Assembly: GCA_965153355.1 (NCBI GenBank)
Contig: OZ231126.1
Coordinates: forward strand, 46,190,001-46,254,000
Origin: Flaccisagitta enflata
Taxonomy: Eukaryota
DNA: 64,000 bases
Direction: 5' to 3'
Within the stretch, counting starts at the first letter, position 1; every line of letters starts with the position of its first letter. The position numbers were made by a program, and so were the translations under genes. A model generated the notes under the pieces. The model was not told the origin of the DNA and did not search any database. It was given only the letters and a program-made list of their open reading frames with translations. Positions 1 through 43,300 of the stretch are shown piece by piece.

Positions 1-2428
1 TCTTTTTGAATTTTTGTTGTATTAAAAAAATCAAAGAATTACAGTGCTGACTGCAGTATGCAAATGAGGCTGGAAATTGTCAACAAAAGGGAAGGAAAAA
101 TTGTAGGAAATTCTAGATGATCTTATCAGTAATTTCTACCTGACATTATACAGCCAGCCTTTTCAGGCCTTCAGAAATTGCTAGGTGGACTATATTTCAA
201 ATCCTTCCTAGCGGGGATTGGATTAAGTTTTCAATTAGCAATAACCACGCCTCAGTTGTTACTTCACTGGCTATGGTATCGCCACTGCGCAAAGCTACTT
301 ATTATTGTTTTTTGATCGGTATGGGCCAAGCCATTGAAATTCATCATAAGATTGAGCCCTGAGCAGATGTGAACTTTGTTTACCTCAATAGACAGTATTA
401 TGTAGGCATAACATTTCAAACTTGGATGTTCTGCCTATTTCCTCCTAAATCAGCAATGATTATCTTTTTGAATTTTTGTTGTATTACAAAAATCAAAGAA
501 TTACAGTGCTGACTGCAGTATGCAAATGAGGCTGGAAATTGTCAATAAAAGGGAAGGAAAAATTGCTGGAAACTCTAGGTGACCTTATCAGTAACATCTA
601 TCTGACATTATACAGCCAGCCTTTTCAGGCCTTCAGAAATTGCTAGGTGGACTATGTTTCAAGTCCTTCCTAGCGGGGATTGGATTTAGTTTTCAATTAG
701 CAATAACCACGCCTCAGTTGTTACTTCACTGGCTATGGTATCGCCACTGCGCAAAGCTAATTATTACTGTTTTTTCATCGCTATGGCCCAAGCCATTGGA
801 ATTCATCATAGGATTGAGCCCTAAGCAGATATGAACTTTGTTTACCTCAATAGACAGTATTATGTAGGCATAACATTTCAAACTTGGATGTTCTGCCTAT
901 TTCCTCCTAAATCAGCAATGATTATCTTTTTGAATTTTTCTTGTATTACAAAAATCAAAGAATTACAGTGCTGACTGCAGTATGCAAATGAGGCTGGAAA
1001 TTGTCAACAAAAGGGAAGGAAAAATTGTAGGAAATTCTAGATGACCTTATCAGTAACTTCTATCTGACATTATACAGCCAGCCTTTTCAGGCCTTCAGAA
1101 ATTGCTAGGTGGACTATATTTCAAGTCCTTCCTAGCGGGGATTGGATTTAGTTTTCAATTAGCAATAACCACGCCTCAGTTGTCACTTCACTGGCTATGG
1201 TATCACCACTGCGCAAAGTTACTTATTACTGTTTTTTGATTGGTATGGGCCAAGCCATTGAAATTCATCATAAGATTGAGCCCTGAGCAGATGTGAACTT
1301 TGTTTACCTCAATAGACAGTATTATGTAGGCATAACATTTCAAACATGGATGTTCTGCCTATTTCCTCCTAAATCAGCAATGATTATCTTTTTGAATTTT
1401 TCTTGTATTACAAAAATCAAAGAATTACAGTGCTGACTGCAGTATGCAAATGAGGCTGGAAATTGTCAACAAAAGGGAAGGAAAAATTGTAGGAAATTCC
1501 AGATGACCTTATCAGTAACTTCTATCTGACATTATAGAGCCAGCCTTTTCAGGCCTTCAGAAATTGCTAGGTGGACTATATTTCAAATCTTTCCTAGCGG
1601 GGATTGGATTTAGTTTTCAATTAGCAATAACCACGCCTCAGTTGTCACTTCACTGGCTATGGTATTGTCACTGCGCAAAGTTACTTATTACTGTTTTTTG
1701 ATCGGTATGGGCCAAGCCATTGAAATTCATCATAAGATTGAGCCCTGAGCAGATGTGAACTTTGTTTACCTCAATAGACAGTATTATGTAGGCATAGGCA
1801 CAATTCGCGGTTTCCCAGGCGGAGCATGAGTTAAATAAGCCATTTTTGAAATCAATTAAATTCAACATATCTATACATCATTGTGAAGGTTATACTTTAC
1901 TGTATATGAATTCACAGTTGAAATTCGTTAGCAGGGTCAAATCTGTATGCAAATTAGGTTATAATAACAAAATCTAAAATTTTCCTTTTTTTCAAAATTT
2001 GATCATTTTATGAAGTAAGATCGACCAGTAAAGGTCTATAATGGTGCAAATACTCAAAGGTAGATGTGTTTACACTATAATGATCATTGGGCAGGTGAAG
2101 TTTTGAATGAAAATGAATGCAACAACTCCAAAAGTCCCAAGAATCAATGTTTTGCATATAGACTAAACAGTTTTGAACAGAGCTACTTTAAAGACCGGAT
2201 ATGAATTTTGAATCTACATGTACATATCTGAAAACCCTTTCATAAATCTGACATTATTGAAATGGATCTATATACATAAATGTATATATTTATATATATT
2301 TGAGGGTTCTAAACTTGCCCACATTGGTGTGAAAACTACCAGTTGTAAAGATTGGGATCGTGCCATACGTCTCTCTGACAAAAAAGTCGCTTAAGTCCAA
2401 ATAAAAACTGAAAATTTTCATAGATTTC

Positions 2429-2581
2429 CTTCATTCATTCATTCATTCATTCATTCATTCATTCATTCATTCATTCATTCATTCTTTCTTTCTTACTCTA
2501 GCTTATTAAGTGACGCTAGATGTCGTCTGTAAATTGTTGAAATATGATTTTGATAACCACAATAATTGCAATCCTTTCATG

Positions 2582-2612
<31 letters not shown>

Positions 2613-2778
2613 CTTCTTCTTCTTCTTCTTCTTCTTCTTCTTCTTCATCTTCTTCTTCTTCTTCTTCCTCTTCAAATTTTGTCTTGTTCTCTTTTATCTC
2701 TTTTATCTCTTCCATCTTCTTCATTTCCATGTCTTTTTTTCTCTGTTTTCTTCTTCTTCTTCTTCTTCTTCTTCTTCA

Positions 2779-2809
<31 letters not shown>

Positions 2810-3079
2810 CTTCTTCTTCTTCTTCTTCTTCTTCTTCTTTGTTTTTGCCTTTTTCTTCTTCGTTTTTGCCTTTTTCTTCTTCTTCTTCTTCTTCTTCTTC
2901 TTCTTCTTCTTCTTCTTCTTCTTCTTTTTCTTCTTCTTCTTCTTCTTCTTTTTCTTCTTCTTTTTTTTTCTTCTTTTTCTCGTTTATCTGCTTTATCTGC
3001 TTTATCTCCTACATGGCTACAACTTCTTTCTTTTCATCATCTTCGTTTTCTTCTTAGATCCGTTACTGCGAGATGGAAC

Positions 3080-3144
<65 letters not shown>

Positions 3145-3160
3145 TTCTCTCTCTTTCACA
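2429..3160. repeat. Compound microsatellite (TTCA)n, (CTT)n, (CT)n
   Basis: Seen directly; explains the poly-L/S/F/E ORFs at 2506-3185. Confidence 0.97.
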
Positions 3161-3235
3161 AAATTGTAGAAAAGAGATTCTGTGAAATAGAAGTGTACAT
3201 AGTCGGTGTAGGCTTTAGTGACAGCATAAGCGTCA

Positions 3236-3435
3236 GTTGACCGGATACACGGCTAACAAAGTCGCTTGCGGGTGGGCAGGGGTCATATTTGAGGTCGCCT
3301 CATCCTTTGGGTAGGAGCATTGAGGCCAAAGACCGCAAAAAAAAAACAAAGTAAAGTGTGATGGACCGACGGACCAACAGACGGACCGACGGACCGACAA
3401 AGCGGGGTGTGGGTCGCTTAGCACGCGACTAAAAA
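3236..3435 (-). mobile_element. HINE/DINE-1-like Helentron non-autonomous element, family A
   Basis: Same structure as the copies at 17754, 29078, 41954 and 49013: subterminal IR AGTCGCGTG, (GTCY)n tract, 3' hairpin GCCGTGTATCCGG. Confidence 0.8.
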
Positions 3436-4301
3436 GGTCTGTAAGAAGTCATCATAAAATAATATTTAGTCGTGGACATGTTACTCAACACCCTGTCATG
3501 TCGGTTGGTAGGTCGGTCCATCCATCCACCACATTCTAGAATTTACAAATGTTTTTTAGACGCGGACACACTTCTCTACACCTTGCCGTTTTGGTCGGTC
3601 CGTCTGTTGGTTGATCAAAAATATTTCTAAACTTGCGAGCGGTTTTCTCATTACTGCTCCTGCCCAACCATCCGCGACTGGTTTGCCGTGTATCCAGCCT
3701 TGTTTTTCATTATTGCCCATGACCAAAAGGCAGGGGTGTTTTACATTCCTATTGAAAAGTTGTACTGCTCATCTTCATCCTCATCCTTATCCTTCGTCTC
3801 TTTCCTTTTTCGTGTCTCTGTCTCTTTTTTCTCATTTCTGTTTCACCTGATGAATACAATTTTTCAATGTTATACGAAAATGTCTAATCATTTCCATCAT
3901 ACCAAATCTACAACCGTCCAACTTTCACTCTTATTCTATAATAACGCATTGAAATACTGTTGTTTGTCATCTCGCTAAAGGCATTATTCGATTAAGCTTG
4001 AACAAAAAGCAAGAATAGTTGATGTTTTGTTTTTTAGTCGTTCTTTAGTTGCGTACACATTACTCTATAAGAGGCTTTGTCCGTCCATCCGTCGGTAGGT
4101 CTGTCCATCCGTCGGTCTGTCCATCGATCGATATAATCTATTTTTTCGCCCATCCGGTGGACGAAACGGTGTTGCCTTTTTAGGACTTCTCGAAATAATA
4201 CAATATGGGACATGAACCGCCAAAATCATGCAAAATGGTGCTGATCGATTCCACTATCTTTTTTTCTCTTCTGTAACCTATTCCTCACCATTTTATCCTC
4301 A

Positions 4302-4388
<87 letters not shown>

Positions 4389-7342
4389 CCGCATCACTTG
4401 TTATCTCTCATACTTTGTTACTACGACTGTTTAAGCATGATTTTGCTGAAACATAAAAAATACCTATAATTTTGCTGTTTTACAGCATTTTACAGCATAT
4501 ACCGATACTAATTTTTTACATCTATAGATCAATTCTTTTCAAAATAGTGTCCCTAGACCAGTTACACTAATTTTGAGTACGGATGAATCAATGCTGCCGT
4601 ATATCAATTAAAACCGAAAAAACAGTAAAAAATGCTGTTTTTACAGCATTTTTACGGCATTTTACAGCACTTATTCAAAACTCAATCAGGAAATTTTTGA
4701 GAATTTAGTAAAAAGTGATATAATAAGTATTTCCGATGCCCATCCCATTGGTTGTTTTTACCTCCTAATCTTTTTTGACAGCCTAAAGCCTCCAACAATA
4801 CGCGATTATTAAAAAAACTTGAGGCAGCTATAAGAAATGTGTTCACACCTAAAGACATGGAATCACAAAAATACTCATAAATCGAGAATGCCTTGACTGA
4901 TGGACTTGAAATTTTAGGGTTGGACGCAGAATTTGATGCTCTTTCAGACCATACCCAGTGCAAACTTCCCTAGTTTCTTATGAAGGGTCTCAATACTAAG
5001 AATCACAGCGTGACATAAGCGTGACAGGGTGTGAACACATTTCTTATAGCACATTGAAAATTTCATATTTCTACATTGAGACATGGCAAAGTCACGAAAT
5101 TTGACATGAACACTCTCATATGTCTTCACTATACGGGCAAAAAAGAAAAAGTTGAAAAATTTAAGTAAATCTGATGTTTTTTTATCAACAATTAAAATTT
5201 TTCCCAAAAATTGTCAAAAACAGTACTTTTAAAAAAAAATTTAAATTTGTAATTTATTATGAACAAGGACCTGTCAACGAATGGTTTTAAGTCCTCAAAA
5301 CCATAACCAGGCCCAATGAAAATGCCCCATTTCTTCATGTCACATTATGTTTTTTCTGATATTTTACAGTGGAGATAGTCAGTGGGACCTAAAAAGGACG
5401 TACAGAAATTGGCCAAATCAGCCCTTTTTTGGGTCTCAGGTCCTAATAATATGTCGACACTGAAGAAAGTAGGTTGTTACCAGAGTGCTACCTGATGTCC
5501 CTGACCACCTAGGGACACTTTTCTCCCAAAAGAAATTGAAAAAGGATACTTTATATGTCATCCTGTAAGGGTATTTCCTTGGCCCGGCGAAACCCGAATC
5601 TTACCCATAACATTTCAAACTTGGATGTTCTGCCTATTTCCTCCTAAATCAGCAATGATTATCTTTTTGAATTTTTGTTGTATTACAAAAATCAAAGAAT
5701 TACAGTGCTGACTGCAGTATGCAAATGAGGCTGGAAATTGTCAACAAAAGGGAATGAAAAATTGTGGGAAATTCTAGACGACCTTATCAGTAACTTCTAT
5801 CTGACATTATACAGCCAGCCTTTTCAGGCCTTCAGAAATTGCTAGGTGGACTATGTTTCAAGTCCTTCCTAGCGGGAATTGGATTTAGTTTTCAATTAGC
5901 AATAACCACGCCTCAGTTGTTTCTTCACTGGCTATGGTATCGCCACTGCGCAAAGCTACTTATTACTGTTTTTTCATCGGTATGGGCCAAGCCATTGAAA
6001 TTCATCATAAGATTGAGCCCTGAGCAGATATGAACTTTGTTTACCTCAATAGACAGTATTATGTAGGCATAACATTTCAAACTTGGATGTTCTGCCTATT
6101 TCCTCCTAAATCAGCAATGATTATCTTTTTGAATTTTTTTGTATTACAAAAATCAAAGAATTACAGTGCTGACTGCAGTATGCAAATGAGGCTGGAAATT
6201 GTCAACAAAAGGGAAGGAAAAATTGTGGGAAATTCTAGATGGCCTCATCAGTAATTTCTATCTGACATTAAAGAGCCAGCCTTTTCAGGCCTTCAGAAAT
6301 TGCTAGGTGGACTATGTTTCAAGTCCTTCCTAGCGGGGATTGGATTTAGTTTTCAATTAGCAATAACCACGCCTCAGTTGTTACTTCACTGGCTATGGTA
6401 TTGCCACTGCGCAAAGCTACTTATTACTGTTTTTTCATTGGTATGGGCCAAGCCATTGAAATTCATCATAAGATTGAGCCCTGAGCAGATATGAACTTTG
6501 TTTACCTCAATAGACAGTATTATGTAGGCATAACATTTCAAACTTGGACGTTCTGCCTATTTCCTCCTGAATCAGCAATGATTATCTTTTTGAATTTTTG
6601 TTGTATTACAAAAATCAAAGAATTACAGTGCTGACTGCAGTATGCAAATGAGGCTGGAAATTGTCAACAAAAGGGAAGGAAAAATTGTAGGAAATTCCAG
6701 ATGACCTTATCAGTAACTTCTATCGGACATTATAGAGCCAGCCTTTTCAGGCCTTCAGAAATTGCTAGGTGGACTATATTTCAAGTCCTTCCTAGCGGGG
6801 ATTGGATTTAGTTTTCAATTAGCAATAACCACGCCTCAGTTGTCACTTCATTGGCTATGGTATCGCCACTGCGCAAAGTTACTTATTACTGTTTATTGAT
6901 CGGTATGGGCCAAGCCATTGAAATTCATCATAAGATTGAGCCCTGAGCAGATGTGAACTTTGTTTACCTCAATAGACAGTATTATGTAGGCATAACATTT
7001 CAAACTTGGATGTTCTGCCTATTTCCTCCTAAATCAGCAATGATTATCTTTTTGAATTTTTGTTGTATTACAAAAATCAAAGAATTACAGTGCTGACTGC
7101 AGTATGCGAATGAGGCTGGAAATTGTCAACAAAAGGGAAGGAAAAATTGTAGGAAATTCCAGATGACCTTATCAGTAACTTCTATCTGACATTATAGAGC
7201 CAGCCTTTTCAGGCCTTCAGAAATTGCTAGGTGGACTATATTTCAAGTCCTTCCTAGCGGGGATTGGATTTAGTTTTCAATTAGCAATAACCACGCCTCA
7301 GTTGTCACTTCACTGGCTATGGTATCCCCACTGCGCAAAGTT

Positions 7343-7637
7343 TTTTTTTCTTTTTTTTTTCTGAAATAGAAGAAGAATGGCATGTGTCATTTTATGCATT
7401 TAGTAGCAATGTCTTTTTTCTTGAGAACCAAATATCTATAGACTACTGACAATCAGGATGATAATTTATGATACGGTTCGAACTACTCCTTTCATGATTA
7501 AAATGCGTTTTTATTCCTGACTGCTGAGCTCCCATTGGAATGTGTGGCAACCCTCCGCAAAAGAGACTCAGTGAGGTCGAGGGCTATCTAGATAAGAGGA
7601 GTCAACCGGAAAGAAATGTCCCATGTCACAGAAAAGA

Positions 7638-7668
<31 letters not shown>

Positions 7669-7759
7669 GCGTGTGCGTGTGTGTATGTGCGCATGTGCGT
7701 GTGTGCATGTGTGTGTGTGTGCATATGGTTGATCATATGCATCCCCATTTCTCTGTCGG
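7343..7759 (-). mobile_element. Retroposed insertion (SINE, 5'-truncated LINE 3' end or retrocopy) with poly(A) tail and 13-bp TSD
   Basis: TSD ACTGCGCAAAGTT at 7330-7342 and 7760-7772. The T-run at 7341-7360 is a poly(A) tail on the minus strand. The satellite resumes exactly after the second TSD. Contains (CA/TG)n. Confidence 0.85.
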
Positions 7760-8186
7760 ACTGCGCAAAGTTACTTATTACTGTTTTTTGATCGGTATGG
7801 GCCAAGCCATTGAAATTCATCATAAGATTGAGCCCTGAGCAGATGTGAACTTTGTTTACCTCAATAGACAGTATTATGTAGGCATAACATTTCAAACTTG
7901 GATGTACTGCCTATTTCCTCCTAAATCAGCAATGATTATATTTTTGAATTTTTGTTGTATTACAAAAATTAAAGAATTACAGAGCTGACTGCAGTATGCA
8001 AATGAGGCTGGAAATTGTCAACAAAAGGGAAGGAAAAATTGTTGGAAATTCTAAATGACCTTATCAGAAACTTCTATCCGACATTATACAGCAAGCCTTT
8101 TCAGGCCTTCAGAAATTGCTAGGTGGACTATGCCTCAAGTCCTTCCTAGCGGGGATTGGATTTAGTTTTCAATTAGCAATAACCAC

Positions 8187-8524
8187 TAGGCTGGATTCAA
8201 TCTGGGCATACAAAAGAAAAGATAATCTCCAAGCAATTTTCATGTTCCACATGTATAATTAGAGGCCTATCTACAAGCAAAATCAATTTGGACTTGATCT
8301 AGTCAGAACGTCATCAATGCTGTAGTTGTATAGAATTACTATGGGAGAAATTTCTTTCACAACTACAGCAATCAATTCTATACAACTACAGCATTGATGA
8401 CGATCTGACAAGATCAAGTCCAAATTCATTTTCCAAGTAGATAGGCCTCTATATATACAAATGGAACATGAAAATTGCTTGGAGATAATTTTTCTTTTCC
8501 AAAGCCTAAAATGAGCCCAGCCTA
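8187..8524. mobile_element. 338-bp palindromic hAT-type MITE with 8-bp TSD
   Basis: Termini TAGGCTGG...CCAGCCTA; TSD ATAACCAC at 8179-8186 and 8525-8532; arms of ~150 bp are near-complementary (e.g. CATCAATGCTGTAGTTGTATAGAATT / AATTCTATACAACTACAGCATTGATG). Confidence 0.92.
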
Positions 8525-8891
8525 ATAACCACGCCTCAGTTGTTACTTCACTGGCTACGGTATCACCACTGCGCAAAGCCACTTTTTACTGTTAATTTCA
8601 TCGTTATGCGCCAAGCCATTGAAATTCATCCTAGGATAGAGCCCTGAGCAGAAATGAACTTTGTTTACCTCAATAGACAGTAACATGTAGGCATAAAATT
8701 TCAAACTTGGATGTTCTGCCTATTTTCCCCTCAATCAGCAAAGATTATCTTTTTGAATTTTTTTTTATAAAAAAAGGATAGAATTACAATGCTGACCGCA
8801 GTATGCAAATGAGGCTGGAAATTGTCAACAAAAGGGGAGGAATCAAGGACAATCGAGGACAAAAAAACAAGCAACCTTTTTTTTTTCATAG

Positions 8892-11690
<2,799 letters not shown>

Positions 11691-29262: not shown

Positions 29263-32211
29263 CTTTCATCTCCTAGTTATGCACTGGTGACTCTGTGAGC
29301 TGCCCTCTTTGCGTCGTTTTGGCAAGTGGAGCCAAGCTGGCAAGTGTCAACAAGTGACGAGGGGTCACAATATCGTTGCGGACGGGTGGGCAGGGGCAGC
29401 CAACCCCCATCCCCACCCATCGCCTCACCCAACTCCCATCCCCACCCAACGCCTCACCCAACCCCCCCCCTTCCGACACTGATACATACACAAAAAGCTT
29501 TTAAAACGCTTGTTTTCCTACTTTTTGACTCGTGCTTACGGACCAACGGACGGACGGACAAAGCCTTTTATAGAGTTGCGTCTCGGCAACTTAGAAACAA
29601 ATTTGTGCATTAAATGAAATAAAAGGCTCTTTGGGCAAAACACTGAACAAGTCCGCTTTGTGCCGCCAATAACTTCCATTGATTTTCTTAATTTGCATAA
29701 TTGAGTAAAATCTGTAATTTGCCAGCGAACTAAGCTTCGTTAAGCGCCAGATTTCCCAGAAATGATGTCGGGTGATCAATAGGAAAGGTTAAGAGCAGTT
29801 TCGGACAGATTCGAAAGATGAAAATTTTTCCAGTTGCCTTACCGCCTGACTACGGATCTTACCTTTATTCATTTTTCATTTTTGATTTTAGCCTCCATTG
29901 AAACACAAATTTTTTTTTTTTTCATGCTTGCCTTCGGAAGTACGCCGTCATAACCTCTGATTATTCCCCCCCCCTGCCTTTGATTTTCTTCCCCGCGACA
30001 CATGGCGCTGCATTTACAAATCTATGATTTTTTCCCCATAAAGCAATAAAACAGTGTAGTTCAGGTTTAAATAGTGTTAAATTGTGTTTTGCTTATCATG
30101 CTCTATGATTTGTTACTGCCAAAAGATACATTTCTCCCAAATTTTCTTTTCTCTTTTTTCCTCCTTTTCCTTCCCTTTCTCCAAACCCACGGGGGGGAGG
30201 GGGTCGGTCCATCACTAAATTGTCTTTCAAGGTATTCTGCTCCTATCCACTGCACTCGTCCGCGACAAATGCCGCCGTGTACATGGCCGTGTTTTCCAGT
30301 TTTTTTTTCTTTCCCCCAGATTTCCACTTTTTTTCTTCCTCTTATCTTTTCCTTTTTAGTCGCGGACCCTCAACTCTAAAATGAGGCTTTGTCCGTCTGT
30401 CCGTTGGTCCATCTGTCGGTCCGTCCGTTAGTAATGATCGAGTTCCAAAGTGTGAAAACGCGCATTTCCGCTCTTGCCCACCCGTACGCAACGGCTTTTT
30501 TTTTCGAAGGCTTCATGTTCCTATTTTCAAAGCCAAGTAAAGCCTTCAACGTTCTTAGAGCATTCTAAATTCAAAATATTATATAAACTATAGGAAACCT
30601 TATATAATACTATTATTGATTTATACTAAATATATTTCTATAAAGTACTGTTAAACAAATGTTAAACATTAGTCTAAGGATGTTATCATAGTATTTATAT
30701 CAAAAGTTATGAAATATCATCTTGATTATACTAAAATTCAAGTATTTTATTAATGTTTTTCAAATCATACCTTGAGAGAAATTTTCTCCTCAAGATTTGA
30801 AACCTTGTATGTTCTTAAGATGTTCTTAATTTTGAGGCCATTCGAAGCCTTGATGTTCTTATAAACTAGGTTCTTATAAAAAAAAAGTGTATTCCCTTGT
30901 TTTTTTTCTCTCTCTCTTTTTCCTGTTTTCTTCTTCGTCCTCGTCTTCGTCTTTGTATTTGTCATCGTCGTCTTCGACGTCTTCATCGTCTTTCTCATTA
31001 TCGTCTTCGTCATTGTCTACATCATCTTAGTCATCATCTTTGTAGTCTTTGTGTTCTTCTTCTTCTTCTCCTCCTCCTCCTCCTCCTCCTCCTCCTTCTT
31101 CTTCTTCTTCTTCTTCTTCTTCTTCTTCTTCTTCTTCTTCTTCTTCTTCTTCTTCTTCTCTTTCTTCTTCTTCTTCTCCCCCGCCGCGTCGTACAATTTG
31201 ACTTGCGTTTAATCCGCCGCTGAATCGACGGCGCCGCCCTGCTCTAGTTCATGCTGTTACGGCATTGTTTCATAATTAACAGGTAATTCGTTAACACTAT
31301 GGGAAAGAGGGGGAAATTCTGTACTCTCAGTTTAAATCTTAAGTGATAACTCCAATTTGTTTGGTCACTGTGAAATTTCAAAGTTGATCTTCACAATTAC
31401 AGAAATAGAGATTGAATTGTATTTTACGTTGCGCAGAAAATTTATCGCGCGCGTTCTTAAGCAGGCTGCAGTCGATTCTCGTCTTGTGCAGAATTCAAAC
31501 TTGTGTTTGAAACTTAAGAATTTGTCAAGGCAGTTGAGTTCAAAGAAGAAAGAAAGTTAAAGTGGGTCGCCTTCAGAGAGGTTGATTACGATAAGTAAAA
31601 TTGACATAACATCTAAACTATTTAAGCAATCAACATGAAATTTGAAACATAGACGATTGATGATATGGCGGACATACGGTTAAAAAATGATGATCGTGAG
31701 CGGACATTAACAACGGGTGACCTCGATCTCTATTTAGGAATGACGGCATAGAAAAGAAATGTCCTCTTGTGTCAGTCAGCTTAAAGGTAGAAATAATTTC
31801 CTTGATTCTCAAATCAATATACAGCTTTGGCATCTTTTTGCATTTGTTGTGCCTATTTGCATGGTCCTCGACTGCTGGCCAGGCATGAACCGGTGTTGCG
31901 GTGGCGAATGAAAGTTGGACAACAAATACGTATATGTCACGCTTGAAGGAAGCGTACTCCGGTAAGAAGGATGAGCAACGTAATTCATTACTAAGTTTCC
32001 CATTGAGTGGAGAGTAGTGAGTCGTGAGTCCGCCATTAAGAGGGGAGGGGGGGAATTAAAATTTAAGAAAAAAACATACTCCTTAGGAAAGCCCACTCGA
32101 TATGCTCTTATGATACTCGCCATACCAAAAAGTAAATATCTATCTTGAGGCATTCACTAAGGGGCCGTTGCTTAAAAGAAGCTGTTCAGACGAATACAAA
32201 AATTCTTCGGT

Positions 32212-34985
32212 CTATCCAGCGATGATTCTCTTGAAAGTCGTCGCCGCTCTGCTGACGCGCTGGAATCCCGCAGTGGCGGCGACGCTTCCGGGCTTCACGA
32301 ACTCAGCCTCGACGACGATTTCCTTCAGCTTGGGATATCGACGGAATATTTGCGGGTCGAAATCTGTCTCAGCGCTTCCATTCTGCCGCTTTTCATCGTC
32401 CTTGTTCGCGCCTCCTTCTGTTATTCCGGTCATCATCTTTGCTGATCCAAACGGATTTCCGATCATCCACAGACTCCTCAACTCGGCCATGGAACTCGAT
32501 CCAACGGCTCGATTCAGATCCGATACGGACGGGATTTGATTGAAGGAAATGTCGAGAAAGTTGAGATTCGGTAAATGCCGGAAAATGGGCCGGATATCGG
32601 CGATGCCGCAATTACGGCAAGTCAGCGAGTTCAGATAAGGACCAAGATGTTCGAGAATCTCCTCGTCTAAATCCTGGAGATTCGCGTTAAAGGAGACGTT
32701 GAGAGAGACGAGACTCCAGTTGGCGCCCGTGCCGCGGATCAAACATTTCGGCAACGTCAGCAGATCCACGTCAGCGAGGTTCAAGGACACGCGACCCAAT
32801 CGATCGCGGTTGTTACGTTTGGGTTTCTGGTTCCTATTGTTGTCGTCGTCGTTGTCAACATCCTCGTCCTCGTCAACCGGTTTAAAATGCTGCTTCAATT
32901 TCGCATAAGGCCATTGTAAGGTCGTGATGACCTCCTCTAATTCCTCGCGAAATTTTGGGTTTTGATAATCGCTTATTTTATCCGCGGCGTCAGCGTCAGC
33001 GTCGCGCAACAGCAGCATCAGGAAGCTGACGTCAGCGGCGCCGCGATCCTCGACAGTCGTCCACGTGTGCAACCATTTTGAGAAACTGAATTTTTGACGA
33101 TTTCCATTTCCGATGATGAAATCAACCTCATCGTCGACTGGAACGTCTCGATGCTGTTGCCGTTGCTGCAGCAAAGGGATATCTCCTCCTGGTGGGAGTC
33201 TTTCAGGGGAGGGAGACGATGAAGAGGGGGTGTATGGCTGGGCGCCCGTGACTTGCATGCATTTGAGAAAACCGAAAAGTTCGACGGTTCCATGAAGAGC
33301 AACGACAACGATAAAGAGCAACTGAAATTTGATGAAGGAGAGGGAAGGTCAACAAGATTATTTTGGATTGAGAAAAGTAGTTATCTACAGGGAATAGACA
33401 CAAAACGCCACCGAAGAAAACATCATATTTCCACTTCTAGAATTGATAATCCAATTCTGAAAAAAGTCCCAGAAAGCGCTTTTAAACCGATTTCATAAGA
33501 TGCAAAATAAGTGAGCACAAATTCAAAACTGCAGCTGCACTGTAGCAATGAAAGAAACTTAAAAGTTGGCGAGGCATGCATTTTCTTGTTTGCGGGTTTT
33601 GGAGTGGTTACACTAATTTTGATGAAATTTTTCAACCTATTGAGCCAGAACCAGGCGGTCGGGCTTGAATCAAAGATATTTTGAGGTAGAGTATGAAATC
33701 ATAAAATGACCAAGCTTTTAATCTATGTAGAATCAGATATTAGCCCATCGAAGGCCAAAAACAACATTACATTTTGCTCTAGAAACCCTTGTGAAAAATG
33801 TATAAATTTGATGGAAATATGATGGGAAACTCACAAATCATTTCGGAAACTAAATTTTCATAAAAATATCTTCAATTTGATACCGCTTTCAGCTTTTTTT
33901 GCACAATTTGAAAATAGATAGCAGTGAATTAGAGTGCGTCCCTTGATAGTTTTCTGAAGAACAAGGCCGGATACACGGCCACCAGTTGCGGACGGGTGGG
34001 CAGGAGCGGTAATACGCGTTTTCCCACTTTTCGACTCGATCATTACGGACGGACGGACGGACCAACGGACGGACAAAGCCTCTTATAGAATTGCGTGTCC
34101 GCAACTAAAAAAGGTGATTTTTCTTTAACAAGGCCAAGTAGGCCAACGATGCGTCCTCTTTGAATGAATGTTTTTTATGAATGAATGTTTTTTTATGAAT
34201 GAATGTCATTTATGAATGAATAAATGATTTATTGAATGAATTTGAAGTTGTATGCTTCTTTTACTGGGTCAGGACCACTTTTCTGTTGAAAAAATGCGTG
34301 AATTTTATGTTTTTAATGAATGCGTTACCGACCAACCAACCAACCGACCGACCGACCGACGGACAGAGCCTATTATAGAGATGCGAGGACGCATCTAAAA
34401 ATGGGCGTATTTTACTGTAATTATTTTTTTTTCAAAACCAATGATGTTTTTCTATCATAGACAAAATCGGTTGGAAAGTTCTTCCAGGAACTTTTTTCAG
34501 AATTAGATTATCATTTCTAGAAACTGAAATATGATATCTTCTTTGGTGGCTTTTGGCGGGGTACTCCCTGTATATTCGTTTTTTCGAAATTCATTCTTTA
34601 ATGTTTTTGTTTTTGTTTTTTTTTTGTTACCTGTAAAATATAACTTGTGGTAGTAGTTTTATTGACGCAAATGAACTCGTATTGATCGATAAGAGCATCG
34701 TGTGTGGCTGGGTCGAGTGAGCATGGAAAGAAAAAGTCGAAATCTCCCTTAGTGACCTGATGAAGAAGCATAGTCGATTACAAAATACTTTCGCTCACTA
34801 GATCACTCGCAGACAGATGGAGCCTGTAAAACAAAAGCTTTGAACAGGGGCGGCTTTGTACAGGGGCGGTGTTGAGGATAGAAAAGAAAAACAATAACAG
34901 CAACACCAACACCAACAACAACATCAACAACATCAACAACAACAACGACGACCTAGAGAGAGAAATTCATTGAGTCAACAATAAA

Positions 34986-35067
<82 letters not shown>

Positions 35068-35243
35068 CAGAGAGAGAGAGACAGACAGACGGACAGACAG
35101 CATAGTCGATTACAAAATACTTTCGCTCACTAGATCACTTGCAGACAGACACACAGACAGACAGAAAGCTTTGAACAGGGGCGGCTTTGTACAGGGGCGG
35201 TGTTGAGGATAGAAAAGAAAAACAATAACAACAACACCAACAC

Positions 35244-35330
<87 letters not shown>

Positions 35331-35350
35331 CGACCTAGAGAGAGAAATTC

Positions 35351-35449
<99 letters not shown>

Positions 35450-37059
35450 AAGTTGAAGAGACAGATTGACTAACGAATTGAAAAAAAATCGGGATGAAAC
35501 AAAACATTCATATAAAGACAGTCGTAAAGATAACCGATGCGGAGGCTAATCAAGACAAGAGAAGAAAAAAGAAGGAATGAGAGTGGTTACATCACCTGGG
35601 ATGCGCCCCATCCGACGATGAGAAATGACAACGCGACGCCAATCAAACTCTTTCCTTGATAAATGAGGCTGACGCTCTTCAAACTACTCAACTCATCCGG
35701 AAGTTGGCGCAAGCTATCGTGAATTTCGAGTGCCGTTGATATATGCGCTTCGTCCCATTGCAGTCCGCGGACAGAAACGTAGCTCTCGACGGATCCGGCG
35801 TGAGAATTGTCATCGGCGTCATTTTCGGTGTCGCTTCGACTGCGCCGGTAGTAATCGAGGAAATTTTCCACTTTACGTTTTGTAACGGCGCCGTCTTTGC
35901 AGCGGCTCACCAATTCGGCGAATGTGCGCAGCTGATGCTGGCAGCTGCGCTGCCACGCCGACCGCAGTGCCAACAGCAGGAAGCACTGCAGCGACAGGAA
36001 GTAAGGAAAGTATTTGGCGTAAAGAGGCCATAATTCCGTACATTCCTGTTCAATGAAGCCCACTTGTTGGAGAAGCGGCGCGTTGGTTTGATTTGTCGAA
36101 ACGCATTGGAGATCGCCCGCACCTGATGATTTGGAGATATCCTAAGACATACTACGCGAATAAAAAAAACAGCCGCACTTTTAAATGGCAATTTATCATA
36201 TCAAACTTTAAAAAAAATCAAACAAAATCTTAGACCATTTTGAAGATCTCAAAAAGATCTTTCATTTGGCTCCAATCTGGTATTTCTAGCTTTTTTCGTT
36301 TAAAAATGGCATAAAAAAGAGTAAAAACATTGCCACTTTCAGTTTTGCAATCCTATTGAAAAATGAGCATTTTTGCAAAAGAGAGGTTCACTTTGGCAAG
36401 CTCTAACTTCTAAACGGTTTGAGAGACAGACCTGGGATTGGTCTAGAATGGAAGAAAATTCAAAAATCTTTAAAATCAGTTGAACAAAAAAATTTTGAAT
36501 TGATTTCTTGTGTCTCTTCTACTTAGCTATAAAAGGTGCGGCTTTTTTTTTTGATTCGCGTAGTACGTATGCCACATCAAGAACAAGGAGTGGATATCCG
36601 TTCGTTAAAGAATTGACAAAACAAAGCCTGAGAACAGCGTTAATCGGTGTGGTAAGCCATGTCCATGGGGCATGGGTAGAAGATACGGAACCATAACTAT
36701 ATCTCTGAACCGTTTTTGGTTGCGGAAACTCTTTAACAGGCTTTGTCCATCCGTAGGTCCATTCGTCCATCCGTCCGTCAATGGGACTCGAGTTTAAACG
36801 TGTAAAAATGTGTTGACCTTGAAACTTTTTTTCTTTTTTTTTGGGGTGGCATTTTTTTTTAAGGATGGACAAAGTAAAATTTTTATCTCATCGTCAACAT
36901 ACCTTCGAAAATGTCTGACGTGACGGAAGTAAGAGAGACGAGCATGGCTATATCGAGGGTGAATTTCACTATCACGTCCCACCATGGTTGGAGGACGCTG
37001 AAACCGTCATCCGTCGGTCCTGCCGACGCAATACGAAACAATCCGTGTATAAATGACAT
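32212..37059 (-). CDS. LRRC8 (VRAC subunit)-like protein, 639 aa, 4 exons: 37059-36903, 36122-35596, 34756-34631, 33321-32212
   Basis: All three introns are GT-AG with matching phases (1, 0, 0). Motifs align with LRRC8: FSVLQPWWDVIV (~YRILKPWWDVF), LQQVGFIEQEC...YAKYFPYF (~LQQYSFINQMC...YAKYFPYL), four extracellular Cys, ADVSFLMLLL (~NDFAFMLHLI), LQWPYAKLKQHF (~NEWTLDKLRQRL), then LRRs (LVSLNVSFN, LNSLTCRNC, LNFLDISFNQI, LRSLWMIGNPF). Paralog identity not assignable. Confidence 0.9.
33388..34570. mobile_element. Tc1/mariner-type MITE in LRRC8-like intron 3, carrying two HINE insertions (33960-34112, ~34128-34402)
   Basis: TA|CAGGGAATAG...TACTCCCTG|TA with ~85-bp imperfect TIRs. Confidence 0.8.
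34768..35448. repeat. ~332-bp tandem duplication in LRRC8-like intron 2 with (AAC)n and (AG)n tracts
   Basis: GCATAGTCGATTACAAAATACTTTCGCTCACTAGATCACT at 34768 and 35100, followed by the same downstream blocks. Confidence 0.9.
36152..36563. mobile_element. TA-flanked MITE in LRRC8-like intron 1
   Basis: TA|CTACGCGAATAAAAAAAACAGCCGCAC ... GTGCGGCTTTTTTTTTTGATTCGCGTAG|TA. Confidence 0.82.
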
Positions 37060-37881
37060 TCTCAATCGTTGATATTCCGCTCAATTTTATGCGACTTTCA
37101 AGAGAGAAAAAAACTTTTTTTTGAGGGAACTCGAAAACACAATTTGAGGTTCTTAGATTCGTGCTTCGTCAACTTAAAATAAGCTGATAGCGTCCTTATC
37201 AATTGCTCCTTGCGTTCTCGGGCCGCAGGGGTGAAGTAAATAGCTTCAAAATCAACCGGTTTCTGATCTATCGTAAACAGGTTCTTAGTCGCGTGTTCGC
37301 GACTCTATAACCCGCTTTGATGGTCGGTCGGTCGGTCGGTCGGTCGATCTGATCGTCCGTCCGTTTGTTGGTCGCCGTTAGGTTTTTTAGCGTTTTTGGG
37401 TGTCTTTTGCAATACTGCTCCTGCCCAAATGCTTGAGTTGGCATTTCTGATCACTGCCCCTGCCCACCCGCAAGCGACTTTGGTAGCCGTTTATCCGGCC
37501 TTGCTTTTCCATTTTGATTGAAAGACCTGATTCCTGGGATGATTACTGTGTATCAAATGCGTTGATTTTATTCGGGGGAACATAAAATTAACTGAGAATT
37601 AATTCTTAGAATCTTACGACAAGAGTAAAAAGCGCAACAGCATCAGTGGACAAGATAAGTGTAATTGCATCTTTTTAGATCAAACTAGAAAATCCTGGTC
37701 AGGTCAATATTTGTCGAACCAGTTGATGTTGAATAAAACAATTGGCTGTTCTGCCTTATGCTCTCTCTCATTTTCTGTCTGTCTGTCCGTCTCTCTCTCT
37801 CTCTCTCTCCTAGTTTTCGCCATTGCCCTTCCATCCGTAACGATATTGTAAACCGGTCTTTCTTTCTATCTATTTATCTAC

Positions 37882-37959
<78 letters not shown>

Positions 37960-38196
37960 GTCTGTCTTTCTTTCTTTCTTTCTTTTTAGTCGCGTGCTAC
38001 GCGACTCTACACCCCGCTATGTCGATCCGTCGGTTGGTCGGTCAATCGATTGGTTGGTCGGTCGGTCGGTCGGTTGGTCGGTCAGTTGGTCACCTTTTTG
38101 AGCATACTGCTCCTGCCCAAATGCCCTTGCGAGCTTCTACAGCATTGCTCCTGCCCACCTGCACGCGACTAGAGTAGCCGTGTCTCCGGCCTTTTT

Positions 38197-38239
<43 letters not shown>

Positions 38240-39465
38240 CTCTTTCTCTCTTTCTTTCTTTTTTCCTTCTTTCTTTCTTTCTTTCTTTCTTTCCGTCTTA
38301 TTCTCTCTTTTGACATTTTTTCTTCTATCTTTATCCTTTTTTTTTTTCGTTCTTTTTTTCTTTCTTTTTTTCTTTCTTTCTTTTTTTACATCATTTTAGA
38401 GGTGCACAATTTACTCAACCTTTTGTTAGTTATTTCGGTCGCCCAACTTTAAAGCAATCCTTGTGTGTGTCACTTGCAAAGATATCATGGCATACCTACA
38501 AAATCTTCCTGCACTTGTGTCTGAACATGTTCTTGTAAAATAAAACTAACTTGACTGTCATCCAATTACTGATAAAAATTTTTCCATTGTACAAATCAAA
38601 TGTGCCAGCAGACAGCTGGGGAGTAACAAAGGTAGTAGAGCTAATTACCTGTAATTTTGTGCTTTCTTCTAGCCGTGCAATTGCCATGTTAACTTTAGTC
38701 AAACATTATAACTGATTGTTTGTTAGAAAGTCCATATCAAAAACTTCATTTTGATACCATTTTTGACATGTTTGACCATATCTGGCTTGGCTTGTCGACC
38801 CAGACAGAAAAAAGTGAGGAAAAATGTTGCTGATGAGGGTCCGATAATTTTACCAAAATTATAGCAGACGTACACCTTGTCAAGGGCTGCTAGTGGGTGA
38901 AATCATTTCAACTCGGACTCACCCCCTTCAGGGTCAGATTAGGCATTTAAAGGTGGTGGTTATCAAGCCTAATTACTTTCCGCAGGAACTAGGCCTAACA
39001 CCCTGCTCTAAACGCAAAGTAACTAAAGGTATTGACTCTAATTACTTAGAAGTAATTAAAGCTAGTGACTTTTTTTCAAAAACTGATTCAACTATCCAAT
39101 TGAGGGAAAAAAAACGAATCAAAACCAAATGTGATTTTATCTGGGAACCTAGATATGCACAAGAGACGATGTCTGTCAGTCTGTCATCTGATTTGCCTAT
39201 CTGCCTGTTCCGTAGTTGTTCAATTGAGTCATGTCTTGACTTGAAAAGCTGCAGATATTGCGCCGATTGTACAGACTAGTCCACTCAGCAATGTTATGAA
39301 GGTTTTTTTTCTTTCTGGAATTACGTTCGCACACCAATACTTCGGGAAACAAATAAGCTCTCTCTTTTTCCATTGGTAAACAAACGATGTGTTCTCAACA
39401 AAATATAAGCCATTTTTATCTTAGTGCACGTAAATCTCCATTTCAATCATTATCATAGCGTCGCC

Positions 39466-40382: not shown

Positions 40383-43300
40383 GGAGCTTAACACCTAACA
40401 CAATTTGGACCCCAAATCAGGCCTATCAGGCCCTAAATTAGGCCTTTCATGATTCATACCCTAAATCGGACCCCTCAGTCCCCAAATCAGGCTTTCCAAA
40501 CCCAAAATCAGGCTTTTCAGACCCATGTTCAGGCCTCTCAAACCCCAAATCAGGTCTCTCAAACCCCGAATCAAGCCTTTCAGACCCCAAATCAGGCCTC
40601 TCAGTCCCTCAAAATTAGCTTCTCAAACCGGAGAAAATTGTCCTATGTGGAATCATATGTCATCAGCTCCTCCAAAGCTGCTGCGCCTCTCATCTCATTC
40701 CCACATAAACCAACTTAGGGGCATGGGGTACCGCTGAGTTGCTGACCATGTAACGCTTTGGCGACTATTCATCAGTGTGCCCCAGCCCACTTGCATGCGA
40801 AAGGGGCAGCTATGTATCCAGCCTTGCTTTTTAAAATCGAATTCTAATCCCAAGCAATGCGCTACATTTGATTTGGCTAAAAACATTTTGAATGATGATT
40901 TTTAGTCGCGTGCTACGCGGCTCTACGCCCCGTTATGTCTGTCCGTTGGTCGGTCGGTTGGTCCCCATTTTATCTTTTTATGGTAATGTAGTTGTTAGCT
41001 TCACTGCTCCTGCCCAAATGCTCCAGTACAGTAACTCAAATGCTGCCCGCACCCGCACGCGACTGGAGAGGCCGTGTATCCGTTCTTGTTTTTGTCATCT
41101 CGCTTCTTTATTTGTCGCAACTTGCGTCAAAATGTTTTCTGCAGACCGCAATGCTTCAACCAGTCACAATATCGTTACAGACGGGTGGGCAGGGGCATCC
41201 TACCCCCATCCACACCCCATGCCCCTCTCACATACACAAAAAACCATCTAAAATGCTCATTTTCGCACTTTTCGACTCGTGTCCACGAACCGACGGACCA
41301 ACCAACCGACCGACGGACAGACAAAGCCTCTTATAGAGTTGTGTGTACGCAACTAAAAACGCCTTTCTTCCCGTTTAACCTGATTACAGCATGAACCCAT
41401 ATTTGGCTTTAAAAATGAAAATTTTATTTCTTATGAAAACTATATAGTGCGACCTATCAAATGAAAGGGAATCTTATCAGGATTAACATTATGCTGTCTA
41501 AAAATAGATAAAACCAACCTGAAAAATAATCTATACAAAATGATGCAAAAGATCTTGAATTTTTCGTTTTTTTAGAAAATCGCCTTGGGAAAGATTCTCA
41601 GAGTAATGGTTCTTTATTTGAATACTTATAAACTCTGCAAAAATGCAAAAACCCGCTTAGTAATATCATTCTTGTCTCAAACCTTATGTGAGTCAGCAGT
41701 GCAGGTAAATTTAAGTCGAAAGCGCCAAGAGATAGTCAGTGACAGCATGAAATGATTCATCTTCATGCAATAAAAGCGGCTATCGCCGACCAGAAACAAT
41801 TTGTATAAGTGGGACTCTTGTTCTCTGTAAAGGCCCTTCTATTAGTTTTCTCCTCATTTCCAGCAATTCAGTTTCTCAATAATGAGCTGCTTAATTGCCG
41901 TTCTTGTTGCAAGGTCATGTCAGTCAAACCAGTTAAATCAGTGAAGAATGACATTTTTAGTCGCATGCTACGCGACTCTACACCCCGCTTTGTCAGTCCA
42001 TCCGTCAGTCCATCGGTCCGTCCATCGGTCCATCACACTTTACTTTTTTTGGGTTTTTGGAATTTTGGCTTCACTGCTCCTGCCCAAATGATCTGGTGAC
42101 CTCAATTACAGCCCCTGCCCACCCGCATACGACTGGAGTAGCCCTGTATACGGCCTTGTTTATATGTTGGCCAGTTTTTAAACCAGTTTTCAGCCAAATG
42201 GGTAGGCTTGCAGCTTTTTCAAACCCACTGGTGCAATTACTTTGTTACTAGCACTTCAAAGTTTGGATATATTTCAACTACCTCATTTTTGAAAAAAATG
42301 CAAAAAATGCAAAAAAGATGATGTTTTGAAAGTTGCATTCATTCACAGCTGATAAAATACTGATTGCGATGAAATTTTGAAATACTGAGGAAATATTAAT
42401 GAAATCTACCAAAAAAAAAGTCCTTTAGTTACCCCCCCAGGCCCTTTGAGGCCTGGAATCTGCCCTCTCACTCTCAGGCCTGAAATCTGCCCTCTCAGGC
42501 CTGAAATCTACCCTCTTAGGCCTGAAATCTACACTCTCAGGCCTGAAATCTGCCCTCTCAGGCCTGAAACCTGTCCTTTCAGGCCCTGAATATGCCCCCT
42601 CAGATTCAAGACCTGAGAGGGCAGATTTCAGGCCTGAGAGGGCCTGGGGGGACTGACTGATGGATGGACGGACGAACGAACAAACAAAAGTCCCTCTGTG
42701 TTCTACAGGACTTCGTCCACTTTGGGGCCGCTGCCCTACTTCCTCTCACTCTGATTCACAACCATGCAAAGCAGAGCAACAGATATTGCTGACCACATAT
42801 TGCCCTTGGACGACTTGTTATGTTTTTTTTTTGTAACGGTAACTGGAAGTAAGGAGTCACTCATTAAAGTGTTGAAAGCTTTTTAGTTGCGGACATGCAA
42901 CTCTATAAGAGGCAACGTCCGTCCGTCAGTCCGTCAGTCCGTTGGCCGTTGGTCTGTCCATCACACTACTTAACTAGTCATCCAAGGATCGCACATGGTC
43001 AGCGGTACCCGATGCCCTGCTGGTAGTGATTCAGTGAAGAGGTGGAGTGAGAGCAGGGCAGCGGCCCCAAAGGGCCGATGTCCTGTAGAACACAGGGGGG
43101 AATTTCGAGACGTCCGTCCGTCCTGAGGGGGCAAATTTCAGCTTTTAGATGGCTGATTCAGGCCACTGGGGGCATATCTCAGGGCTGGAGGGCAGAATCA
43201 AGGCTTGAAGAGCAGATTTGAGGTTTGCAGGGCTGATTTAATGCCTGTAAGGCTGATTGAAGGTCTGGAGGGCAGATTTGAGGTCTGGAGGGTGGATTTG

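Follow-up and report, generated by a model that had tools for sequence, protein, structure and literature searches.

The 64-kb window analysed here, by which we mean the whole stretch from 46,190,001 to 46,254,000 of contig OZ231126.1 of Flaccisagitta enflata (assembly GCA_965153355.1), carries on its minus strand a four-exon gene that we regard, with a probability of about 0.8, as an intact gene for a divergent subunit of the LRRC8 family, in which a pannexin-like four-helix membrane domain, whose two extracellular loops carry disulfides, is joined by an LRRC8-type linker to a naturally short leucine-rich repeat (LRR) domain of six repeats. The exons splice into a coding sequence (CDS) of 1920 nt that specifies 639 amino acids (aa) and contains a single, terminal stop codon, as read directly from the letters and as rebuilt by script from the coordinates (Table 1). 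All three introns begin with GT and end with AG and interrupt the frame in phases 1, 0 and 0, the first exon closing in phase 1 on the donor AG/GTATGT, and the ATG taken as the start is the first one after an in-frame stop at 37083-37081. The in-frame, four-exon model of 639 aa proposed by the first-pass annotation is reproduced exactly, in coordinates as well as in length. Its remark that the track of open reading frames (ORFs) fails to show the gene whole also holds, since the third exon comprises only 42 codons, which is too small for standard ORF tracks and causes them to miss the gene.

Table 1. Exons and introns of the LRRC8-like gene and the parts of the protein that they encode (TM, transmembrane helix; positions count from the first letter of the window).
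Feature	Position	Strand	Length	Content
Exon 1	36903..37059	minus	157 nt	CDS start; N-terminal cytosolic segment, PWWD motif, TM1
TM1	~36907-36975	minus		in exon 1
Intron 1	36123..36902	minus	780 nt	GT..AG; interspersed repeat inside; no profile-matching ORF
Exon 2	35596..36122	minus	527 nt	short extracellular loop 1 (C59, C80), TM2 with YAKYFPY, intracellular loop 1, TM3
TM2	~35953-36021	minus		in exon 2
TM3	~35596-35664	minus		in exon 2
Intron 2	34757..35595	minus	839 nt	GT..AG; rich in (CT)n and (GTT)n microsatellites
Exon 3	34631..34756	minus	126 nt	42 codons; extracellular loop 2 with C240 and C258
Intron 3	33322..34630	minus	1309 nt	GT..AG; interspersed repeats abundant in RNA runs
Exon 4	32212..33321	minus	1110 nt	369 codons and TAG; TM4, Pro/Ser/Gln-rich insertion, linker, acidic insertion (low-complexity, between linker and LRRs), LRRs, tail
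TM4	33259-33321	minus		in exon 4
Cytosolic helical linker	~32893-33135	minus		in exon 4
Six LRR units	~32302-32796	minus		in exon 4; followed by the C-terminal tail

The motifs PWWD, YAKYFPY and YEFICVNK, to which the first-pass annotation had drawn attention, are all found in the spliced protein, where QPWWDV occupies residues 25-30, YAKYFPY residues 87-93, and YEFICVNK lies within the peptide of exon 3, VTKGDFDFFFPCSLDP...YEFICVNK...SYILQ. Hydropathy places TM1 at approximately residues 29-51, TM3 at approximately 206-228 and TM4 at 271-291, whereas TM2 (approximately 87-109) is located by alignment only. The extracellular loops contain two cysteines each (loop 1, C59 and C80; loop 2, C240 and C258), which align with the invariant residues C57, C94, C249 and C281 of a family of relatives described below and through these with cysteines of LRRC8C; the four extracellular cysteines claimed earlier are thereby confirmed. 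The product of exon 4, as modelled with AlphaFold2 (AF2), has an overall predicted local distance difference test (pLDDT) of 53.8, with moderate values over the linker and LRR1-4, and displays helices at exon-4 residues 63-143, corresponding to the linker, as well as six LRR strands at exon-4 residues 178-182, 202-208, 232-234, 255-257, 286-289 and 334-337. These strands coincide in the alignment with the six repeats of the full-length relative P0012, and six LRR-type strands in the C-terminal part fit the five to six repeats counted before. The 15-17 C-terminal LRRs typical of LRRC8 proteins are absent, the exon 4 and P0012 models and the alignment all giving six.

The connection to LRRC8 is already visible in individual exons. 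The Pfam family PF12534 ('Pannexin-like TM region of LRRC8') recognises exon 2 with 30.0 bits (cut-off 25) over profile positions 104-193, and the adjacent part of the profile, positions 9-47, is matched by exon 1 with 20.2 bits, while exon 4 is recognised by LRR_4 with 33.1 bits. Comparison of exon 2 with the sequences of the PDB at E≤10 returns LRRC8A, LRRC8C or LRRC8D in 26 of 27 matches (best E 3.2e-4), the 27th being innexin-6, and the alignment begins late in loop 1 and passes through TM2 into the first part of the intracellular loop.

Relatives were sought with searches that covered close, word-sharing relatives and a 175-aa query. A word-seeded search with exon 4 at near lengths retrieved only P0005 among 5476 candidates, a 316-aa fragment from another contig that is 96% identical to the model and has the same C-terminal residues; the word-seeded search with exon 2 at longer lengths retrieved none among 1147 candidates. 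An exhaustive HMMER search with exon 2 yielded seven proteins at E≤1e-3, among them P0006, a genomic fragment of the same locus type (99% identical), the fragments P0007 and P0008 (58-61% identical) and P0009 (46%), as well as two full-length relatives, P0011 (547 aa) and P0012 (564 aa). P0007 (164 aa) and P0008 (182 aa), both exon 2 relatives encoded on other contigs, have 'FIEQECTELWPVYAKYFPYFLSLQCFLLLALR' nearly unchanged; on record as fragments, they suggest that the window gene has relatives or paralogues nearer to it than the full-length proteins are. One candidate of this search, P0010 (347 aa, E 2.1e-4), is internally repetitive and has no PF12534 match, and was dropped as spurious.

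A search with the alignment of P0011 and P0012 recovered 26 proteins, 12 of which (556-624 aa) carry PF12534 together with LRR families; the remaining 14, without PF12534, are generic LRR proteins and were removed before the family alignment, A3, was made. The family thus consists of 13 full-length proteins of 547-624 aa (P0011, P0012 and P0018-P0028), found on Logan or JGI contigs of approximately 2 kb; none of them is named and none comes from NCBI or UniRef. Two scans of metagenome contigs, one with P0004 and one with A3, gave 248 and 128 pattern matches, respectively, none of which was confirmed by tblastn. Judged by sequence and fold, the window gene is a member of a conserved family of proteins, about 550-640 aa long, that has had no name so far. 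The window sequence itself is present mostly in one DNA run of the organism (word share 0.78) and partly in marine metagenome and metatranscriptome runs, and we infer from the marine metagenome occurrence, together with the lack of NCBI or UniRef entries among the relatives found, an origin outside the vertebrates.

Among the 13 members of A3, 12 match PF12534 (best E 7e-30), and the A3 profile scores 226 bits (E 7e-66) against LRRC8C. Profile positions 15-499 correspond in one stretch to LRRC8C 16-524, so that TM1-4, both cysteine-bearing loops, the linker helices and the first LRRs are all included, and a separate stretch aligns profile positions 411-546 with LRRC8C 673-810, at the C-terminal end of LRRC8C. 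The cytosolic helical linker characteristic of LRRC8, with the pattern FLsplFHddL...W, lies inside the collinear stretch, and the window protein aligns on the same positions. Thus, the LRRC8 pannexin-like domain, for which a profile search had been suggested, is recovered through PF12534 as well as through the score of the family profile against LRRC8C.

The AF2 model of P0012 (pLDDT 75.7) contains four long transmembrane helices, strands in the loops, the helices of the linker and six LRR strands. Foldseek places only LRRC8 chains at the top of its PDB matches for this model, with E down to 1.3e-18 and a TMt of up to 0.79 against LRRC8 chains that comprise the pore domain only, and the neighbours of P0012 in the ESM Atlas are clusters of chordate LRRC8A-E (score 0.97; 219-225 of 256 features shared). 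The pore domain alone (residues 1-400) gives 26 matches in the PDB, all 26 of them LRRC8, with no pannexin and no innexin. A two-copy complex prediction for the same residues, made without use of the alignment and without folded controls, returned no answer (score 0.00, mark 0.32) and counts neither for nor against.

The A3 profile also matches the spliced window protein, with 201 bits (E 1.9e-63), in a single stretch that pairs profile positions 1-482 with residues 1-536 and has no gap at the junctions 52/53, 228/229 and 270/271, in agreement between hmmsearch and MAFFT. This gap-free alignment with homologues supports, at the level of sequence, the three splice junctions. In the MAFFT alignment the window protein is 22.5-25.0% identical to each of the 13 relatives over 503-556 aligned residues; its N-terminus, MSF..., lines up with MAF... 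of the family, and exon 3 aligns with loop 2 of P0011, P0012 and P0028. The window contains 2044 stop-to-stop ORFs of at least 20 aa; when all of them are searched with the A3 profile and every filter is switched off, matches are confined to the four ORFs that carry the exons, with E-values of 1.2e-9, 7.3e-19, 3.2e-3 and 1.3e-21 for exons 1 to 4, and the next best ORF reaches 0.49. The exons cover profile positions 1-51, 65-234, 232-288 and 340-482 in turn, and since only these four ORFs fit the family profile, and do so in collinear order, a chance match is excluded.

In architecture, in the invariant cysteines and in having six LRR strands the window protein agrees with the 13 relatives; its length is similar and both its termini are comparable to theirs. 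It differs from them by a shorter loop 1 and by three insertions, namely a 38-residue Pro/Ser/Gln-rich one after TM4, an acidic one ahead of LRR1 and a third ahead of the last repeat. With LRRC8 proteins it has in common, in collinear order, the PF12534 four-helix domain, the motifs PWWD and YAKYFPY, four loop cysteines that align, the linker and the C-terminal LRRs. P0012 reaches only some 15-20% identity in its Foldseek alignments, there are six LRRs instead of 15-17, the length is 639 aa (547-624 aa in the relatives) instead of approximately 800-860 aa, and extracellular loop 1 is much shorter. In addition, the gene has four coding exons, whereas vertebrate LRRC8 genes are mostly single-exon. 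Leu70 in loop 1 aligns with residue 105 of LRRC8C, a position that we take to be the outer constriction and that is presumably occupied by Arg103 in LRRC8A; the residue found there in the family is Trp, Tyr, Ile or Leu.

LRRC8 proteins are described as having 15-17 repeats, and their origin is placed at the chordates, in the part of one review cited here (PMC9399500); the cited passages of other reviews likewise speak of a chordate or vertebrate innovation, which agrees with the first-pass statement that LRRC8 had been described as largely chordate. The same review also reports LRRC8-like genes in Nematostella vectensis, credited to Abascal and Zardoya 2012 (PMC9399500), and 'Lrrc8a' appears among Nematostella candidate genes in an excerpt of a further paper (PMC10491807). 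These genes likewise lie outside the chordates, the comparison being with the report in PMC9399500 and not with their sequences. No short-LRR family of LRRC8 is described in the limited literature searched (main texts on LRRC8 or LRRC8-like genes in cnidarians including Nematostella, protostomes, tunicates or amphioxus). The short-LRR members are a new variety within the LRRC8 family, conserved as a family, and the divergent LRRC8 lineage with a short LRR domain that the first-pass annotation had proposed is supported by PF12534, by the LRRC8C profile score and by the family of short relatives.

Several observations weigh against an intact gene of the LRRC8 family. The PF12534 match of exon 1 falls under the cut-off, exon 3 alone has no Pfam match of any kind, P0011 lacks a PF12534 match, and residues 537-639 of the window protein lie outside the profile match. 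Exon 4 alone finds 40 sequences in the PDB that are all generic LRR proteins, without an LRRC8 signal, and has as its ESM Atlas neighbours clusters of LRRC51, DNAL1 and U2A' type; its model is poor (see above) and gives no Foldseek match at E≤0.001, and the weak, generic LRR matches beyond that threshold, with LRRC8A at rank 8 (E 8.4e-3), are not used as evidence. Oligomerisation, conductance and gating would all be carried over from homologues at about 20% identity. Four RNA runs were mapped on 30000-39000, the polyA run of the organism (X24) being sampled at about 6 in 100 of the run; at this sampling its depth is zero on all four exons, and its reads fall only on interspersed repeats in the introns. 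Contigs from metatranscriptomes are sparse over the gene. Two of them, X11 record 8 and X12 record 14, run from exon 1 through the donor into intron 1, and a third, X12 record 13, crosses the acceptor of exon 3; because they cross splice sites, all three represent unspliced RNA or DNA. X23 record 23 lies within exon 2. X23 record 22, a contig of 151 nt, nearly coincides with exon 3 (34633-34754) and carries 28 letters that are not those of the adjoining intron; it is compatible with splicing, without being proof of it.

The zero depth of the polyA run, at about 6% sampling, speaks for a rival reading in which the locus is a young pseudogene, a short LRRC8-like copy that is not expressed or is decaying although its frame is still open. 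Such a copy would also account for the result of a script that detected neither AATAAA nor ATTAAA within 712 nt downstream of the stop, and for the two low-complexity insertions and the shortened loop 1 that distinguish the window protein from its family. However, all 639 codons are open across three canonical introns, the four loop cysteines and the family-invariant residues are retained, and P0005 and P0006, from other contigs, keep the frame open at 96% and 99% identity, P0005 down to the same stop; the contig that nearly matches exon 3 adds an indication, though not proof, of splicing. We therefore consider a pseudogene unlikely. A different objection is that the membrane domain may be that of an innexin or pannexin which gained a short LRR tail independently and converged on LRRC8 from another fusion lineage. 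Innexins are the usual members of the superfamily outside the chordates, according to the parts of two papers cited here (PMC3928549, PMC9399500), innexin-6 is a marginal match for exon 2 (E 0.027), and the LRRs of exon 4 taken alone resemble short LRR proteins of SDS22 or U2A' type. Pannexins and innexins share with the window protein the large-pore topology with four transmembrane helices and two cysteines in each extracellular loop, and LRRC8 is homologous to both, according to reviews cited in part (PMC9399500), yet they differ from it in having no LRR tail. The Innexin profile (PF00876) matches none of the exons at E≤1, and within the family Innexin is found in one of 13 members (E 0.0086, under the cut-off) compared with 12 of 13 for PF12534. 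The alignment with LRRC8C proceeds continuously and in register from TM1 through the linker helices into the LRRs, the PDB matches of the P0012 pore domain are LRRC8 without exception, and the P0012 model likewise has LRRC8 chains only among its best Foldseek matches, so that convergence appears very improbable.

The short LRR domain would have a trivial explanation if the gene model were incomplete and a long array of LRRC8 type were encoded by further exons, reached by splicing out of exon 4 or located outside the window. The 15-17 LRRs of vertebrate LRRC8 proteins might lead one to expect this, as might the last 100 residues of the model, which are weakly conserved and of low model confidence. 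In the search of ORFs of at least 20 aa with the A3 profile, however, no ORF besides those of the four exons fits the profile, its LRR part included, and there are no further LRR exons in the window, which extends 32 kb beyond the stop. The 13 full-length relatives, on their contigs of approximately 2 kb, stop once the sixth repeat is complete, P0005 has the model's own final residues, and the C-terminal tail is weakly similar to that of P0011. The downstream exons that, in the terms of the first-pass annotation, might restore a long LRR array are thus lacking in the window, and the relatives end at the equivalent place. Because there are no hidden exons, because P0005 has the same end and because the relatives stop after the sixth repeat, the short LRR tail is real and a property of the family, and we give an incomplete model next to no credence. 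An intact gene for an LRRC8-family subunit with a naturally short LRR domain remains our preferred reading of the locus.

The RNA runs also draw attention to the introns. An interspersed repeat with a (GGAC/GGTC)n core, translated as ...PTDRPTDGQSLL..., is present at 33913-34514 in intron 3 and at 34816-35116 in intron 2, and the same repeat recurs at, for example, 36700-36800, 37300-37450 and 41200-41390. It is highly abundant in all four RNA runs, at a depth of thousands in the contig runs and of approximately 20-40 in the raw-read run, whereas the neighbouring exons have none, and it looks like a transcribed element resembling a short interspersed nuclear element (SINE). Intron 2 additionally contains a tandem duplication of 332 nt filled with microsatellites (34767-34817 versus 35099-35149, the 51-nt anchors being 98% identical), the proximal copy of which stops 11 nt short of the exon 3 acceptor, and the duplication does not include exon 3.

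Elsewhere in the window, a tandem array of the U4 spliceosomal small nuclear RNA (snRNA) occupies 157-8215 on the minus strand. Its eight full copies, scoring 103-112 bits, are arranged as two blocks of four with a period of approximately 462 nt (157-1682 and 5818-7342), and a weak copy follows at 8095-8215 (46.7 bits). An open frame of 907 codons at 8813-11533 on the plus strand contains acidic and Ser/Pro-rich low-complexity stretches as well as a recurring 'LP.WW..R' motif, and matches no Pfam family at E≤0.01. The Pfam search of three neighbouring long ORFs gave no match.

By homology, the subunits of the LRRC8-like protein would be expected to assemble around a central large pore in the manner of LRRC8, which forms hexamers according to the cited part of a review, and the N-terminus together with the end of loop 1 would line this pore. 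The helical linker and a small cytosolic LRR 'skirt' would constitute the regulatory module. LRR-domain movements have been implicated in the gating of VRAC (the volume-regulated anion channel). Six repeats are probably too short for the extensive LRR-LRR packing of vertebrate VRAC, so that the linker and the loops should matter more for any gating by ionic strength or swelling. Since the cytosolic assembly built from six repeats would also be far smaller, LRR-mediated coupling of the subunits should be reduced or missing altogether. Selectivity may differ from that of VRAC containing LRRC8A, because the family has Trp, Tyr, Ile or Leu at the position of LRRC8C residue 105. The physiological role is probably the efflux of anions and small organic osmolytes, or the release of signalling molecules, in a marine animal.

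We tentatively suggest that the short-LRR proteins represent an old, non-vertebrate sister lineage of LRRC8 that has stayed near the original fusion of a pannexin with an LRR domain, and that the 15-17 repeats of vertebrates arose by a later internal expansion. Such an expansion fits the alignment with LRRC8C, since the first LRRs of the family align directly after the linker and its last repeats at the C-terminal end of LRRC8C. In this context, a review asks, in the section cited here, whether the LRR domain added to an ancestral pannexin is what conferred volume sensitivity. Any novelty is tempered by the LRRC8-like genes outside the chordates that were already noted in Nematostella, as reported in the cited part of PMC9399500. 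The finding raises the questions of whether channels with a short skirt oligomerise and are gated by swelling or ionic strength, which of the LRRs are dispensable, and when the fusion took place. If the proposal is correct, channels of the LRRC8 type, possibly with a swelling-activated conductance for anions and osmolytes, would be older than vertebrates, and the family would provide a natural minimal LRR module with which the contribution of the LRRs to VRAC gating can be tested. The 13 full-length members and the window locus form a natural test object for the role of the LRRs in volume sensitivity.

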